DNA of 37,467 nucleotides from the UHGV virus genome UHGV-0220213. One strand, given 5' to 3'. The position numbers and the translations under genes are program-made. This document shows, piece after piece, positions 8,794 through 37,467 of this stretch (position 1 is the first letter of the stretch; every line of letters starts with the position of its first letter). The notes beneath the pieces were generated by a model. That model had not been told where the DNA came from. It did not search any database and saw nothing but the letters and a program-made list of their open reading frames with translations. This DNA is from a virus.

Positions 8794-9216
8794 ATGCAGC
8801 ATGATTTATTTGAACACGATCCGGCAATTCGCCAGTTAATCGGACATATTGATAACATCCCGGCCCCGGAACTGGAATCACGCTGGCCCCGTTCGGTGGT
8901 TGATCTGATTGATGTTCTGGAAAACGAACTGAAACGCCAGAACGTCAGCAATCCCCGTGAGCTTGCCCGTAAACAGGCCGTTGCCCTGTCCTGTTTTCTG
9001 GGCGGGCGGCAGTTTTACATCCCCTGCGGCGATACGATCCTGACCGCGTTACGCGACGATTTGCTTTACTGCCAGTTCAATGGTCGTAACATGGAAGAAC
9101 TGCGTCGCCAGTATCGCCTGTCCCAGCCGCAGATCTACCAGATTATTGCCCGCCAGAGAAAGCTGCATACACGACGTCATCAGCCTGATCTGTTCTCACC
9201 TGAAAGCCAGAAATAA
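8794..9216 (+). CDS. C: C, late-gene transcription activator (140 aa)
   Basis: 140 aa; Mor/C family with conserved C-terminal DNA-binding region. Confidence 0.88.
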   Translation: MQHDLFEHDPAIRQLIGHIDNIPAPELESRWPRSVVDLIDVLENELKRQNVSNPRELARKQAVALSCFLGGRQFYIPCGDTILTALRDDLLYCQFNGRNMEELRRQYRLSQPQIYQIIARQRKLHTRRHQPDLFSPESQK

Positions 9217-32319: not shown

Positions 32320-32847
32320 TTACTCAGGCTTTTGTGGCCATTCGGGATTTGCTGTATCCACACGGCTGACCAGAACGCTGTAGCGTTCCCATGACTCCAG
32401 TCGTGTGCGTTCCTCATCCGTCGCCATATTCAGCCTGACAGCGCGTTCCAGTGGCTGAATAACGCTTTCAGCTTCAGAAAGCAACGCGACCTTTTGTGAT
32501 TCGGCCTGTTGTTGCTGTTCGTCTGCTGTATAAATCCGCTTAACCACAGTTCCGTCCTTAAACATCCACTTCCCTGAATCATCGGCACGACGATTGGCTG
32601 TTATATCTGGAATCTCAACGACACTAAAGCCTTCGGGATTAAGCGTTGAGGCATCTTTGGTGATGGCAACAATAATATTATTTTCGTCGTATACAATCTT
32701 TATGGTGTCGTCCTGAAAGTTATTTACTTCCTCATACCAGTTTTTACCGTCTTCGGACCATAACCAGATAACATCAAAATTCTTTGTTAGCTGATATTGT
32801 TCTTTTGTTTTTGGATTTCCGGACTTAATATTTTTTAAATGCTGCAT
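32320..32847 (-). CDS. Alternative tail fibre assembly chaperone U' (175 aa)
   Basis: Minus-strand paralogue of U inside the G segment. Confidence 0.85.
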
Positions 32848-32850
32848 AAT

Positions 32851-33703
32851 TTACACCTGTGCGACGTTATACCATGTGCCATTGATGTATTTTTGTATTG
32901 GTCTGAAGATGGCTTCATCATCGCCATCTACTTCACCAATGATTCTTAATCCGGTAATTGCGTGTCCGGCTTTTTCATAACGACCACCACGCGCCATCAA
33001 TTGAACAACACGCGTACCCAGGCGAACATCTTTTACATAGCGTGAATCAAAATTCCCCCAGTTGCTGGGCTGCATCTGACCGTTAACAGAAAATATTACC
33101 GAGTTATCTGTATTTCGCTGGCTATAGAAATGCCATCCTGCCTCATCGCCTAACTCTGCAACTACTGGACGGGTTGAAGCACCCCATAAATTAAACGTTG
33201 CATTCTTTGTGGAGTTGTTGGAGCTGGATAGCGTGAATTTTTTACCATCCCCGGCCTGAATATTTTTAAAAGCAATAGCCACTCCATTCTGAAAGCGGAA
33301 TACACGCTGACTATTAGCATAAACATCCAGAATACCGTCTCCATTCTGTTTAAATCCGGTGTCATTATCACCAAGAACAATAGAGCTACCACCTAACGCA
33401 TTCGTCGAACCAACTCCAAGACTGCCATTAATGACAGCATTAACAAGAATATTTAGTGCATCCCATTTCAGCGTCATCAGGTCTTTTGTTGTGGTGCTCT
33501 GGCGGCTTCTCCATTTGAAATATTCATTGCCGTTGTCGCCTGTTTCAAACCACATGTATGAATCAGTGTCACCATCGGCATCATTTTTAAATCCAATCTT
33601 CGCCCAGTCAGTATTTCGAATCCAGGCAAGGATTGAGTCATTTTCAAAAGTAAGCCCACCGGACAAGGTATCGCCATTTTTTTGCACGGCGTTACCAGCC
33701 CTG
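32851..33703 (-). CDS. Sv', alternative variable part of the tail fibre (no own promoter; fuses to Sc after inversion)
   Basis: Minus-strand frame stays open from 32851 through the right inverted repeat, where it also encodes NLGLQETVN; C-terminus homologous to S. Confidence 0.8.
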
Positions 33704-33737
33704 TTTACCGTTTCCTGTAAACCGAGGTTTTAGATAA
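33704..33737. repeat. Right 34-bp inverted repeat of the G segment (gix-type site)
   Basis: TTTACCGTTTCCTGTAAACCGAGGTTTTAGATAA, reverse complement of the left repeat with one mismatch. Confidence 0.9.
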
Positions 33738-33791
33738 TGGTTGTTTCCGGCCTGCATGGCATGATTTGCGCTTTTAAACGGGAGATCCAGA

Positions 33792-34409
33792 GTGCTGATT
33801 GGCTATGTAAGGGTATCAACAAATGACCAGAATACAGACCTGCAACGAAACGCTCTTGTTTGTGCAGGATGTGAACAAATATTTGAAGATAAATTAAGCG
33901 GAACAAGGACAGACAGACCTGGATTAAAACGCGCGTTAAAGCGCCTTCAAAAAGGTGACACACTGGTTGTCTGGAAACTGGATCGCCTCGGGCGAAGCAT
34001 GAAACATCTGATTTCCCTCGTCGGGGAACTACGGGAGCGAGGGATTAATTTTCGCAGTCTTACCGACAGCATAGACACATCTTCTCCAATGGGGCGTTTT
34101 TTCTTCCACGTTATGGGTGCCCTGGCTGAAATGGAACGAGAACTAATCATCGAGCGAACGATGGCTGGACTTGCTGCCGCCAGAAATAAAGGCCGTATTG
34201 GTGGGCGACCACCTAAACTAACCAAAGCGGAATGGGAGCAGGCCGGGCGTTTATTAGCACAAGGAATCCCCCGCAAGCAGGTTGCATTGATCTATGATGT
34301 GGCTCTGTCAACTCTGTATAAAAAACACCCCGCGAAACGAACGCATATAGAAAACGACGATCGAATCAATCAAATCGATCGGCAATACAGATCGATTATG
34401 CCCCAATAA
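33792..34409 (+). CDS. gin: Gin, serine-recombinase DNA invertase (205 aa, GTG start)
   Basis: N-terminus MLIGYVRVSTNDQ with the catalytic serine motif; Hin/Gin/Cin family; adjacent to the right repeat. Confidence 0.9.
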   Translation: MLIGYVRVSTNDQNTDLQRNALVCAGCEQIFEDKLSGTRTDRPGLKRALKRLQKGDTLVVWKLDRLGRSMKHLISLVGELRERGINFRSLTDSIDTSSPMGRFFFHVMGALAEMERELIIERTMAGLAAARNKGRIGGRPPKLTKAEWEQAGRLLAQGIPRKQVALIYDVALSTLYKKHPAKRTHIENDDRINQIDRQYRSIMPQ

Positions 34410-34467
34410 CCACACTCAACCCACGATGTTTTTTAAGATAGTGGCGAATTGATGCAAAGGAGGTGAG
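34359..34467 (+). promoter_or_regulatory. mom operon control region: three clustered GATC (Dam) sites and the Pmom region
   Basis: GATC at 34359-34362, 34377-34380 and 34390-34393, 75-110 bp upstream of com; strong SD AAAGGAGGTGAG before com. Confidence 0.6.
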
Positions 34468-34656
34468 ATGAAATCAATTCGCTGTAAAAACTGCAACAAA
34501 CTGTTATTTAAGGCGGATTCCTTTGATCACATTGAAATCAGGTGTCCGCGTTGCAAACGTCACATCATAATGCTGAATGCCTGCGAGCATCCCACGGAGA
34601 AACATTGTGGGAAAAGAGAAAAAATCACGCATTCTGACGAAACCGTGCGTTATTGA
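34468..34656 (+). CDS. com: Com, zinc-finger translational activator of mom (62 aa)
   Basis: 62 aa with CxxC...CxxC (CKNC...CPRC); overlaps the 5' end of mom. Confidence 0.9.
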
Positions 34657-35320
34657 GTATGAAGGCCAGATTGTTGGCTATGGTTCAAAGGAACTGCGCG
34701 TTGAAACCATATCCTGTTGGCTGGCCCGCACAATTATTCAGACAAAGCACTATTCCCGCCGTTTTGTGAATAACTCTTACCTTCATCTGGGGGTATTCAG
34801 CGGACGCGATCTGGTTGGCGTTCTCCAGTGGGGATATGCCCTTAACCCCAACTCAGGTCGTCGTGTCGTGCTTGAAACGGATAACCGGGGCTATATGGAG
34901 TTGAACCGCATGTGGCTACACGACGACATGCCCCGCAACTCTGAATCACGGGCCATCAGCTACGCGCTGAAAGTTATCAGATTACTGTATCCGTCAGTGG
35001 AGTGGGTTCAGTCCTTTGCTGACGAACGCTGCGGACGCGCAGGCGTTGTGTATCAGGCGTCGAATTTTGATTTTATTGGCAGCCATGAAAGCACGTTCTA
35101 CGAGCTGGATGGTGAGTGGTATCACGAGATAACGATGAACGCGATTAAGCGAGGTGGACAACGAGGCGTGTATTTACGGGCTAATAAAGAGCGTGCCGTG
35201 GTGCACAAATTTAATCAGTATCGCTACATCAGATTCCTGAACAAGCGAGCAAGGAAGCGGCTAAATACCAAGCTATTCAGGGTTCAGCCATACCCTAAGA
35301 GATCCCCATGGAATGAATAA
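34577..35320 (+). CDS. mom: Mom DNA-modification (anti-restriction) enzyme; exact start uncertain
   Basis: Last phage gene, reading frame overlaps the 3' end of com; in-frame candidate starts ATG 34577 and GTG 34607. Confidence 0.8.
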
Positions 35321-35322
35321 AA

Positions 35323-35349
35323 AGCAGTAATTAATACTGCTGTTTCATT
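35323..35349 (+). terminator. Terminator-like hairpin after mom
   Basis: Stem AGCAGTA / TACTGCT with loop ATTAA, followed by GTTTCATTT. Confidence 0.5.
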
Positions 35350-35417
35350 TGAAGCGCGAAAGCTAAAGTTTTCGCATTTATCGTGAAACGCTTTCGCGTT
35401 TTTCGTGCGCCGCTTCA
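35341..35417. repeat. Mu right end (attR) with three transposase-binding repeats (R3, R2, R1)
   Basis: TGTTTCATTTGAAGCGCGAAAG (35341-35362), then two opposite-orientation copies ending ...CGTGCGCCGCTTCA at 35417. Confidence 0.85.
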
Positions 35418-35740
35418 GCGAACACAATACACAATGCAGAAACCAGTAGCGTATTGAGCAGGCCGACAATAAAAACGCGTCCGTAAGTGTCGCCTTGCTG
35501 ATAATCAATCAAATGCTGAACGATGCCAAAACCGGCCCCGCGGTCAAGAAAAGCAAATCCTGATGTTATGCCGCGATTACTGAGATTCGTTACAGTGTTG
35601 TGAAATAACCAACCAATAATGCCGACAACAGCAACAACGGCAAGGATCTGGAATAACCAGGCGCGAACCGTAGGGTTGGCAAAAGAGAGTGAGCCTTTAA
35701 CGGTTGAGCGGCGATGAGACATAGAAACCTCGGAAAGCAT
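35418..35740 (-). pseudogene. yhdX: 5' fragment of an amino-acid ABC transporter permease gene (yhdX-like) interrupted by the prophage
   Basis: Minus-strand ORF starts at 35740 with TM-rich permease N-terminus and runs into the phage end, terminating in phage DNA at 35378; only about 107 codons are host-encoded. Confidence 0.7.
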
Positions 35741-35789
35741 AACGCTGAAGAGAGCGCCGCCGTAGCGACGCTCGTTACCTCACACCGAC

Positions 35790-36815
35790 TTAACGCACGG
35801 GCGGCGCGTACTGAATACCGCCGTTATTCCAGAGATTATTTTGCCCACGTTTAATTTTCAGCGGGCTTTCTGAACCTACGTTACGCTCGAAAATTTCCGA
35901 GTAGTTACCCACCTGTTTGATGATGTTAAAGGCCCATTTATTATCCAGCTTCAGATCCTTGCCGTAATCGCCTTCTTTACCCAGCAGATGTGCCATATCA
36001 GGCGTTGCTGGATTAGCCGCTTTTTCATCGACGTTCTGGGAATTGATGCCCATCTCTTCAGCATTCAGCATGGCGAAAAGCGTCCAGCGTACAATCGAGA
36101 ACCATTCATCATCGCCACGACGAACTACCGGCCCAAGCGGTTCTTTAGAGATAACTTCCGGTAAGACAATCCATTCAGCTGGGTTGCTTAATTTGATGCG
36201 CAGGGCATACAGTTGTGATTGATCCGAGGCTAGCGTATCGCAGCGACCAGATTCCAGTGCCTTCGCTGATTCGTCAGAGCGATCGAAAGTCACTGGTGTG
36301 TACTTCATATTGTTTGCCTTGAAGTAATCGGCAACATTGAGTTCAGTATCAGTACCCGCCTGAATACAGACGGTAGCGCCATCCAGTTCTTTCGCGCTTT
36401 TTAGCCCCGCTTTATCGTGCGTCAGGAAGCCAATGCCGTCGTAATAAGTGACGCCAGTAAATGCCATTCCCATCCCGGCATCGCGAGATGAAGTCCAGGT
36501 CGTATTACGGGAGAGCAAATCCACCTCCCCTGACTGTAAAGCGGTGAAGCGTTCTTTTGCAGTGAGCGGGGTATATTTCACTTTCGTATCGTCACCGAAT
36601 ACAGCAGCGGCAACGCCACGACAAACATCTACATCAATACCTGAAAACTTACCGTCAGCATCGGCATAAGAGAACCCAGGTAATCCATCACTGATCCCGC
36701 ATTGCACAAAACCTTTTTTCTGAACGGCATCAAGCGTCGCGCCAGCATGCGCCTGATTTGCAACGGCAAGCAGCACGCTGGCGGCAGCCAGTGTGGCTAT
36801 CATCATCTTTTTCAT
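35790..36815 (-). CDS. yhdW: Periplasmic amino-acid-binding protein of an ABC transporter (341 aa)
   Basis: Signal peptide MKKMMIATLAAASVLLAVANQAHA; solute-binding protein features; upstream of the permease gene. Confidence 0.75.
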   Translation of the reverse strand: MKKMMIATLAAASVLLAVANQAHAGATLDAVQKKGFVQCGISDGLPGFSYADADGKFSGIDVDVCRGVAAAVFGDDTKVKYTPLTAKERFTALQSGEVDLLSRNTTWTSSRDAGMGMAFTGVTYYDGIGFLTHDKAGLKSAKELDGATVCIQAGTDTELNVADYFKANNMKYTPVTFDRSDESAKALESGRCDTLASDQSQLYALRIKLSNPAEWIVLPEVISKEPLGPVVRRGDDEWFSIVRWTLFAMLNAEEMGINSQNVDEKAANPATPDMAHLLGKEGDYGKDLKLDNKWAFNIIKQVGNYSEIFERNVGSESPLKIKRGQNNLWNNGGIQYAPPVR

Positions 36816-37212
36816 AATGCTTCCTGTGAGGCGAAAATTATCGTTATAGGACGTTTGGGAAACGTCTTTTACCTGTCTGTGGCCATCCTCTTATAAGCAA
36901 AAGTAGTGCCAGCTTTTGCGCACGATTTCGCGTCGCAATAAGCTGAGTGTAGACAGGAAATAATAAAAACAGCGCCCCGCAATGGTGCGAAAATGAAACA
37001 TGCGCCACATTTTGGCGCAAAATATTTACGCGTTTTTTACTAAGCAGAATAATGATTGTTAGCGTGAGTATATTTCTGGTGGGATGTGTGAAAGTTAAAT
37101 TGATGCGTTATTTCGAAAGCAGCGAAATAACGTGATATAACATGCTAAATCAGCAGGGAATTACCCAGCAGAATATAGCAATATTTTATCTTATGGAAAG
37201 ATACTGTATCGT

Positions 37213-37240
37213 TAAAAAGAGCGCGGAGCTCCGCGCCCTG
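37213..37240 (-). terminator. Rho-independent terminator of yhdV
   Basis: Perfect palindrome GCGCGGAGCTCCGCGC followed by TTTTT on the minus strand, immediately after the yhdV stop. Confidence 0.7.
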
Positions 37241-37245
37241 TTTAG

Positions 37246-37467
37246 TTATTTCGACAGAGCGATGATCCCCATCGTCAGGCCAGCAACAGCTGCTGCCCCG
37301 CCGGCAATAGCCCCAGCCGTTTCCCAGTTATCCTGAGTCGTGCCTTTCATACAGGTATTGGTGTGAACCAGACGACCCTGGTCGTCATAAACCGGAACGC
37401 AGGGCGAATCGTGAGCACAGCCCGCCAGCAATGCGGTGAGCAATGTCACAGGAATTAATCTTTTCAT
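37246..37467 (-). CDS. yhdV: Small lipoprotein (73 aa)
   Basis: Lipobox LLAGC after a signal peptide; Gly/Ala-rich C-terminal TM segment; start codon is the last triplet of the window. Confidence 0.7.
   Translation of the reverse strand: MKRLIPVTLLTALLAGCAHDSPCVPVYDDQGRLVHTNTCMKGTTQDNWETAGAIAGGAAAVAGLTMGIIALSK

Follow-up and report, generated by a model that had tools for sequence, protein, structure and literature searches.

The com-mom control region of a Mu-type prophage in Escherichia coli and a tentatively proposed Com-responsive RNA element at related mom loci

Main finding

The com-mom control region analysed here, together with the 5′ part of mom, most probably is a Muvirus prophage operon in Escherichia coli and is expected to work in a Mu-like way (we put the probability of this reading at about 0.93). 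It lies near the right-hand side of a stretch of 37,467 nt, which was analysed as a whole and is called the window below. The basis for the region consists of its identity to phage Mu, its genes and sites, the predicted hairpins, and the conservation and covariation of these elements; the binding of proteins at the locus and the regulatory outcomes would follow what the Mu literature describes. The control region is the well-studied one of Mu, which had been correctly recognised and is already known, and the window shows an E. coli Mu-type prophage with an apparently intact copy of a heavily regulated phage gene, which otherwise matters little. The local peculiarities, judged by sequence, are minor variants: 12 additional residues in Gin, six additional residues in Mom and one substitution in the promoter spacer. 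Only one part may go beyond published work, namely the comparison of the Com-responsive RNA among related loci together with the lineage-limited distribution of the GATC triad.

The locus and its prophage context

In the alignment, positions 33700-35417 are 97.3% identical to phage Mu and 97.6% identical to SfMu, and the segment 34394-34695, which holds the promoter, com, the Com target and the mom start, is only one base off Mu, with C34424 in place of T, a variant common to SfMu. Since this segment is a single base away from Mu, the earlier Mu interpretation is supported and the element is one already known. The first-pass annotation, made from the letters alone, had claimed a Mu-type com-mom arrangement, and this is borne out by the 97.3% identity to Mu, by a Com protein that is 100% identical, and by the homologous annotated promoter, ribosome-binding site and GTG. 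The gene order is gin, com, mom, attR. The prophage is of the Mu/D108/SfMu type and its insertion site is E. coli yhdX: the Mu right end (attR, 35342..35417, unstranded), placed by alignment to the Mu and SfMu ends, finishes with CGCCGCTTCA at 35417, and the DNA past this position is E. coli yhdX/yhdW, 100% identical over the next 2 kb. Over its left 25 kb the window matches D108 best, while the right end is of the Mu/SfMu kind, with no D108 gene 56; the window does not reach the left end of the prophage. No complete E. coli genome was identical to the region, the closest being 99.0%.

The gene mom (34607..35320, plus strand) encodes an adenine-modifying GNAT enzyme of 237 aa that uses Gly-tRNA(Gly), as assigned from PF25680 and from homology to the Mu CDS; the adenine modification via Gly-tRNA(Gly) is described in the biochemical literature on Mom (PMC13219725). 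The PF25680 (Mom) match spans positions 1-202 of 202 with an E value of 3e-75, and the protein is 98.7% identical to Mu Mom. Because the stop codon TGA of Mu is AGA here (35300-35302), the product carries six further residues, RSPWNE, and has 237 aa versus 231 aa in Mu. The exact 237-aa protein is rare, being found on only three contigs, one of which has the same yhdW flank. Directly after the mom stop there is a terminator-like hairpin (35323..35341, plus strand), recognised by pattern scan only. NCBIfam gave no matches for Com, Mom, C and Mor, and Pfam was used in its place.

com and the two hairpins at the mom start

The gene com (34468..34656, plus strand) encodes a 62-aa CCCC zinc-ribbon protein, the translational activator of mom, as assigned from PF10122 (Zn_ribbon_Com, E 2.7e-9) and from its identity to Mu Com (62/62 residues, 100%); it is also 100% identical to Com of SfMu and of D108. 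Its Shine-Dalgarno sequence AAGGAGGT is located at 34457-34464, 5′ of the ATG, so that the earlier description of com as a 62-aa zinc finger with a strong Shine-Dalgarno sequence was right on both counts. The function of Com as the translational activator of mom is known from Mu (PMC6483171). A further fold was predicted around the com ribosome-binding site, namely an 11-bp stem (34443-34453 paired with 34473-34483; 34443..34483, plus strand) whose 19-nt loop shows the com Shine-Dalgarno sequence and AUG, with -13.4 kcal/mol and z -3.24, and it appears in the 285-nt fold too. The relatives compared do not conserve it; the modelled stem is specific to the Mu lineage, and for want of conservation it was left out of the mechanism proposed below.

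The 25-nt Com target published for Mu, GAAUGCCUGCGAGCAUCCCACGGAG (PMC6483171), is present exactly at 34575-34599. Within it lies the Com-binding hairpin (34577..34590, plus strand), with the stem AUGC/GCAU and the hexaloop CUGCGA, which is identified by the match to the published target, by the predicted folds and by covariation. It is followed by the translation inhibition structure (TIS; 34590..34612, plus strand), an 8-bp hairpin formed by 34590-34597 and 34605-34612 in both the predicted minimum free energy and centroid structures and described in the literature, where the Mom GUG is placed in the TIS stem (PMC6483171, Nowacka et al.). Half of the mom Shine-Dalgarno sequence GGAG (34596-34599) is in the 5′ arm of the TIS, and the GUG (34607-34609) is in the 3′ arm. 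The hairpin alone has -9.5 kcal/mol (z -2.74), with 3 of 200 shuffles as stable, it is predicted in every fold made, and the pairing of GUG 34607 with an upstream partner has an ensemble probability of 1.0. The wider folds are no better than shuffles (z -0.61 for 96 nt and z -0.76 for 285 nt), and thus thermodynamics alone would have missed the element. The first-pass annotation had suggested folding 34600-34670 to find a stem masking the mom start, and had named the lack of a stable structure at any in-frame start codon as something that would refute its proposal. A masking stem does exist and encloses GTG 34607, but it is located slightly upstream, at 34590-34612. That Com binding opens the TIS and activates Mom translation is known for Mu (PMC3378877; PMC6483171), and by analogy the same would be expected here.

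Rfam has no family for the Com target or the TIS, and a scan of 33700-35500 at E <= 1 returned only a chance-level Phage_DGR hit of 20.9 bits, where the gathering score is 50. A covariance model built for the Com element gave one match in the window, at 34573-34617.

Comparison with related mom loci

A search seeded by aligned Mom homologues gave 80 loci, from gamma-, alpha- and delta-proteobacteria and from a few other phyla, and in most of them a Com-like zinc-ribbon ORF lies 5′ of mom. In nearly all of the 44 loci with a detectable Com, the mom frame opens before the com stop, with an in-frame start 30-70 nt inside com. When, for each locus, the in-frame start closest to the com stop but no less than 20 nt before it was chosen, the median probability of upstream pairing at this start was 0.70, versus 0.27 at control positions (44 loci), and it reached at least 0.8 in 20/44; the 59-nt segment had a median z of -2.0 in the same 44 loci. 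Moreover, 25 of 43 non-redundant loci, versus 0.65 expected, have the motif CC-N3-4-GAGC beginning 26-39 nt 5′ of the start, a statistic that ignores phylogeny; the motif agrees with the SELEX motif CC(N)2-3GAG in a hexaloop (PMC6483171). The GAG of this motif falls in com frame 0 within the Mu lineage but in frame 1 in other lineages, and this shift of frame, as read from the sequences, argues for a constraint at the RNA level rather than at the protein level.

The small Com hairpin covaries across 21 loci, where 95% of the cells are paired and none of 500 shuffles scored as high; the pair types are GC 7, CG 6 and UA 4 at one position and AU 13, GC 4 and GU 2 at another, and slid registers are paired at 12-52%. 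RNAalifold, run on the MAFFT alignment, recovered the small hairpin only, and the masking stems, whose lengths are too variable to align, were assessed sequence by sequence. In 15 of the 17 loci outside the Mu lineage, the start codon is predicted to pair with the motif itself, and therefore the Com hairpin and the masking stem would be mutually exclusive there; in the Mu lineage, including the window, the masking stem is 3′ of the motif. The covariance model found one match per locus in 12 held-out loci (E < 0.01), on the coding strand and just 5′ of mom, and no other match at E <= 1 in 308 kb. Gamma-, alpha- and deltaproteobacterial loci alike include cases with the com-mom overlap, with a hairpin that masks the start and with the covarying 4-bp Com hairpin and its CNNNGA loop. 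In some enterobacterial mom loci, such as L006 and L015, com is missing and the covariance model finds no match either.

Based on these results, we propose tentatively, at slightly less than even odds, that the Com-responsive RNA is a conserved element wherever com and mom co-occur in prophages of gamma-, alpha- and deltaproteobacteria, with the overlapping form in most alpha and delta lineages, the adjacent form in the Mu lineage, and the GATC triad in Enterobacterales only. The element may consist of a 4-bp hairpin with the hexaloop C-NNN-GA (GCC-NNN-GAGC), located 26-39 nt 5′ of a mom start that is itself 30-70 nt inside com, as modelled from the aligned loci. The overlapping form, if the predicted folds are right, may make a simple protein-driven switch. 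No description of a family-wide Com-responsive RNA, or of a GATC triad limited to one lineage, was found in the searchable literature, the older subscription papers being outside that search. The comparison yields sequence rules for finding Com-controlled mom genes and their correct start codons, and it suggests how the translational lock evolved between adjacent-hairpin and overlapping-hairpin forms.

The same geometry could be explained in another way, namely that the main activator of mom is not free Com but the ribosomes translating com, which would cross the hairpin in cis (translational coupling), and that the overlap of 30-70 nt is kept for that. The whole TIS (34590-34612) indeed lies within the com ORF (34468-34656), and the overlap appears to be kept in nearly all of the 44 loci. 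However, a pure transit of ribosomes would not need the Com hairpin and its loop motif, which are conserved and covarying, nor would it account for a GAG that occupies different com frames in different lineages. Wulczyn, Bolker and Kahmann reportedly found in 1989 that Com in trans activates mom, which counts against coupling in cis. Furthermore, Com binds its target on the mom mRNA specifically in vitro, and the accepted model is a Com-induced melting of the TIS (PMC6483171). We thus consider translational coupling as the main activator to be improbable and retain free Com in this role.

The start codon of mom

The first-pass annotation had stated that the mom frame opens inside com, that initiation occurs within or just after com, and that ATG 34577 and GTG 34607 are in frame whereas ATG 34659 is not. 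All of this agrees with our analysis: the frame opens at 34577, ATG 34659 is out of frame (82 mod 3 = 1), and GTG 34607 is 50 nt before the com stop, which gives a com/mom overlap of 50 nt. It had also held that the start codon cannot be fixed from the sequence, and here we differ, since the Mu annotation, the literature and the relatives all point to GTG 34607. In the curated Mu record, mom starts from the GTG homologous to 34607, with the ribosome-binding site GGAG homologous to 34596-34599. The mom gene therefore starts at GTG 34607 and not at ATG 34577, which has no Shine-Dalgarno sequence, is part of the Com hairpin and is missing in four of the related loci, and the annotation of mom is fixed accordingly.

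Translation from ATG 34577 with a 247-aa product, in place of the hairpin-embedded GTG, is very improbable. This ATG is the first in-frame start of the mom ORF, and the long form is annotated in the SfMu and D108 records and in several assemblies. However, the sequence in front of it (34560-34576, TCACATCATAATGCTGA) has no purine-rich Shine-Dalgarno sequence, the ATG itself belongs to the conserved Com-binding hairpin as its 5′ arm, and an upstream ATG is missing from the mom frame in L004, L008, L012 and L019, so that there the GTG within the hairpin is the only usable start. In addition, the Mu curation uses the GTG with the GGAG, and published work has the GUG within the stem of the TIS (PMC6483171) and treats Mom as a protein of 231 aa. 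No record of the exact 247-aa Mom protein was found. Automatic calls of the mom start are inconsistent, with products of 231, 235 or 237 aa versus 245 or 247 aa.

gin and the GATC triad

The gene gin (33792..34409, plus strand), identified from the ORF list, from the Pfam domains Resolvase and HTH_7 and from alignment with Mu, SfMu and D108, encodes the G-segment invertase with 205 aa, compared with 193 aa in Mu and 197 aa in D108 and SfMu. It overlaps a cluster of three Dam sites at 34359-34362, 34377-34380 and 34390-34393 (34359..34393, unstranded), which are spaced by 18 and 13 bp and cover 35 bp overall, and which we assign as the predicted methylation-sensitive OxyR operator of Pmom on the basis of the GATC positions, the identity to Mu, SfMu and D108, and the literature. 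The cluster had been reported as three GATC sites within 35 bp, 75-110 bp upstream of com, and measured from the com ATG (34468) it lies 109 to 75 bp upstream. It was also noted that the gin ORF appears to run through the cluster, and all three sites are indeed inside 33792-34409. The gin gene of Mu itself already spans the first GATC, and its stop TAA sits between GATC 1 and 2; D108 and SfMu have CAA at this position and end at a second TAA between GATC 2 and 3. Both in-frame TAA codons have become CAA in the window (34371-34373 and 34383-34385), and this is why gin spans all three sites here. The alignment of the C-terminus with Mu Gin, which had been proposed as a check, shows the 12 additional residues and the loss of the two stops, and gin now stops at TAA 34407-34409, directly beside the -35 hexamer of the mom promoter. 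The Pfam HTH domain ends at residue 181, and the extra residues lie past it; the index of a public collection lists the exact 205-aa protein in 908 blocks. Because it is so widely indexed and its extra residues are beyond the HTH domain, the 205-aa Gin is a common, tolerated variant.

The GATC triad is identical in the alignment of Mu, SfMu and D108. No other GATC triple of the window is as tight, the runner-up spanning 92 bp and sharing sites with it, and the window is depleted in GATC, with 71 sites versus 137 +/- 10 expected. Under uniform placement, the probability of a GATC triple within 35 bp anywhere in 37 kb is about 0.10, and by counts alone the cluster is only mildly unusual; its weight, as far as sequence goes, rests on homology and conservation. 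Among the related loci, a triad with the spacing of 18/13 bp (19/13 in one locus) is found 76-114 bp 5′ of com in five Enterobacterales loci (L005, L019, L007, L025 and L039), and a partial one in L004, L008 and L011. The flanks of the triad are about 49% identical in these Enterobacterales relatives, and the fact that the triad is kept despite this is the best evidence here, taken from sequence comparison, for selection on it. None of the alpha and delta loci examined has the triad, and clusters of GANTC (CcrM), sought as a substitute for GATC in the alphaproteobacterial loci, were not seen. E. coli has both Dam and OxyR. An OxyR consensus scored best over the GATC sites at 34356 and 34365 with 12/20, and about 16 other positions of the window scored equally. 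In Mu, the interplay of Dam and OxyR governs Pmom, OxyR binding and repressing only when the DNA is un- or hemimethylated (PMC3378877; PMC2909390).

It is hardly credible that the three sites arose from gin coding or by chance and play no regulatory part in this prophage. In favour of this view, all three are inside the gin ORF here, a triple of this kind has a probability of about 0.1 across the window, and the match to the OxyR consensus is weak. Against it, the gin gene of Mu stops before GATC 2 and those of D108 and SfMu before GATC 3, yet the sites are identical whether coding or not, and therefore coding constraint does not explain them. Moreover, the extra Gin residues are outside the HTH domain, the triad and its spacing persist in Enterobacterales with diverged flanks while the alpha and delta loci are without it, and Dam/OxyR control of Pmom is documented (PMC3378877; PMC2909390).

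The promoter and its activator

The weak, activator-dependent mom promoter is assigned to 34396..34439 (plus strand) from its identity to Mu Pmom, with the exception of C34424, and from the mapping of the Mu late-promoter feature 35693-35759 to 34393-34459 of the window. It consists of a -35 hexamer ACCACA (34409-34414), a spacer of 19 bp with a run of six T (34429-34434), and a -10 hexamer TAAGAT (34434-34439). Upstream there is the inverted repeat TTAT-N6-ATAA (34396-34409), which we take to be the C-binding site. A consensus scan found no sigma-70 promoter at Pmom, as expected if it depends on an activator. In Mu, Pmom is known to have poor -35 and -10 hexamers with a spacing that is not optimal, to contain a T stretch and to depend on C (PMC3378877; PMC4461284), and Fis is a further repressor of it (PMC3378877, PMC4461284 and PMC2909390 as a group). 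The gene for C, the late transcription activator that is required for transcription from Pmom (PMC4461284), is also in the window (8794..9216, plus strand), with 100% identity to the SfMu 'late transcriptional activator'.

Proposed mechanism

We propose that the operon would be controlled at several levels. Host OxyR would bind the triad operator (34359-34393) when the GATCs are not fully methylated and block transcription, and Dam methylation of these sites would lift the block. The weak promoter (34409-34439) would then fire only when C binds just upstream and recruits RNA polymerase. On the resulting mRNA, com would be translated efficiently from its strong Shine-Dalgarno sequence, whereas the Shine-Dalgarno sequence and GUG of mom (34596-34609) would be locked in the 8-bp hairpin 34590-34612 of the same molecule. 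Com would bind the adjacent hairpin (34577-34590, loop CUGCGA), the lock would open, and Mom would be made from GUG 34607 and would modify adenines of the phage DNA using Gly-tRNA(Gly). This copy differs from Mu by C34424 in the promoter spacer, by 12 aa in Gin and by six aa in Mom.

Comparison with known systems

The locus shares with phage Mu (AF083977 / NC_000929; Mu_52, Mu_53 and Pmom) the gene order, Com, the GATC triad, the Com target, the TIS and the GTG start, and the differences are a Gin of 205 rather than 193 aa, a Mom of 237 rather than 231 aa, and C rather than T at 34424. SfMu resembles the window in having C34424 and a Mu-type right end. In both SfMu and D108 the first gin stop of Mu is missing, as in the window, but both end gin at 197 aa. 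D108 carries, in addition, gene 56 behind mom, and its right end is of another kind; the window is without both.

With regard to the transcriptional switch, agn43 (Ag43) of E. coli and the gtr genes of Salmonella/P22 likewise have GATCs in an OxyR operator, where methylation prevents binding of the repressor (PMC2909390). While agn43 and gtr phase-vary, phase variation is not settled for mom (PMC2909390). The mom system is also unlike agn43 and gtr in that the switch is superimposed on a translational lock and on a late promoter that needs an activator. For this lock, a comparison has been drawn with HIV Tat-TAR (PMC6483171), where likewise a small basic protein and a short hairpin loop change the fate of an RNA. 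However, Tat acts on transcription, whereas Com acts on the initiation of translation, by freeing a hairpin, adjacent here and overlapping in other lineages, that hides the Shine-Dalgarno sequence and the start codon.

Prophage structure and insertion site

By sequence comparison, the prophage is a mosaic in which the left 25 kb and the right end (35180-35417) are of different types. Window 1-25000 has D108 as its top match (97.9%, from D108 coordinate 1272), whereas the right end is of the type found in Mu and SfMu, and the D108-specific gene 56 is missing there. The insertion site is yhdX of E. coli, encoding an amino-acid ABC transporter permease (window 35418-37467); a residual yhdX ORF (35378-35740, minus strand) runs into the Mu right end, and yhdW (35790-36815) is intact. 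Positions 1-35417 contain 65 GATC sites where base composition predicts about 137, a roughly two-fold depletion. The tail-fibre and Caudo_TAP-type genes beside gin (32320-33687) lie on the minus strand, which shows how the invertible G segment is oriented in the present assembly, and both orientations are present among other assemblies carrying the same Gin.

The gin-com-mom region

In gin, the G-segment invertase gene, the codon CAA at 34371-34373 and 34383-34385 replaces two successive in-frame TAA stops of Mu and D108/SfMu. Because both earlier stops read CAA, Gin is lengthened to 205 aa, and its stop (34407-34409) adjoins the mom -35 hexamer. The index of the public collection lists 908 blocks with exactly this 205-aa protein, and the long form is therefore common. 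Downstream, a perfect 11-bp stem (34443-34453 with 34473-34483), placed at the mom mRNA 5' end or close to it, holds the com SD and AUG inside its 19-nt loop (-13.4 kcal/mol, z -3.2 in folding). No complete E. coli RefSeq genome carries an identical copy of the com region, the best match being 99.0%.

At the other end of mom, AGA stands in place of the Mu stop TGA (35300-35320 region), which lengthens Mom by six residues (RSPWNE). Only three contigs encode exactly this 237-aa Mom, and one of them has the same yhdW flank; gene callers place the mom start inconsistently, giving 231, 235 or 237 aa versus 245 or 247 aa. A hairpin resembling a terminator, readable on both strands and carrying a T-rich tail, lies 3 nt past the mom stop (35323-35341), and additional hairpins lie inside the Mu right end, attR (35356-35398).

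Comparison with other mom loci

Some enterobacterial mom loci (L006, L015, and also L009, L010, L014, L016-L018 and L028) have no detectable com, and no match to the Com-target RNA was found in them (e.g. L006 2382-2500, L015 2200-2480). Their Mom proteins are 67-81% identical, and in L006 mom comes almost immediately after a gin-like invertase gene. In these loci the control of mom must differ.

The 11-bp stem enclosing the com SD and AUG is identical in Mu, but com-mom loci that are less closely related do not conserve it. In alpha- and deltaproteobacterial loci (L023, L031-L033, L040-L044, L056, L060, L062 and L071; region about 45 nt upstream of the mom start), the mom start codon is predicted to pair with the NNN of the Com motif GCC-NNN-GAGC, so that formation of the masking stem would preclude the Com hairpin, and vice versa; Mu, unlike these loci, has two adjacent hairpins.
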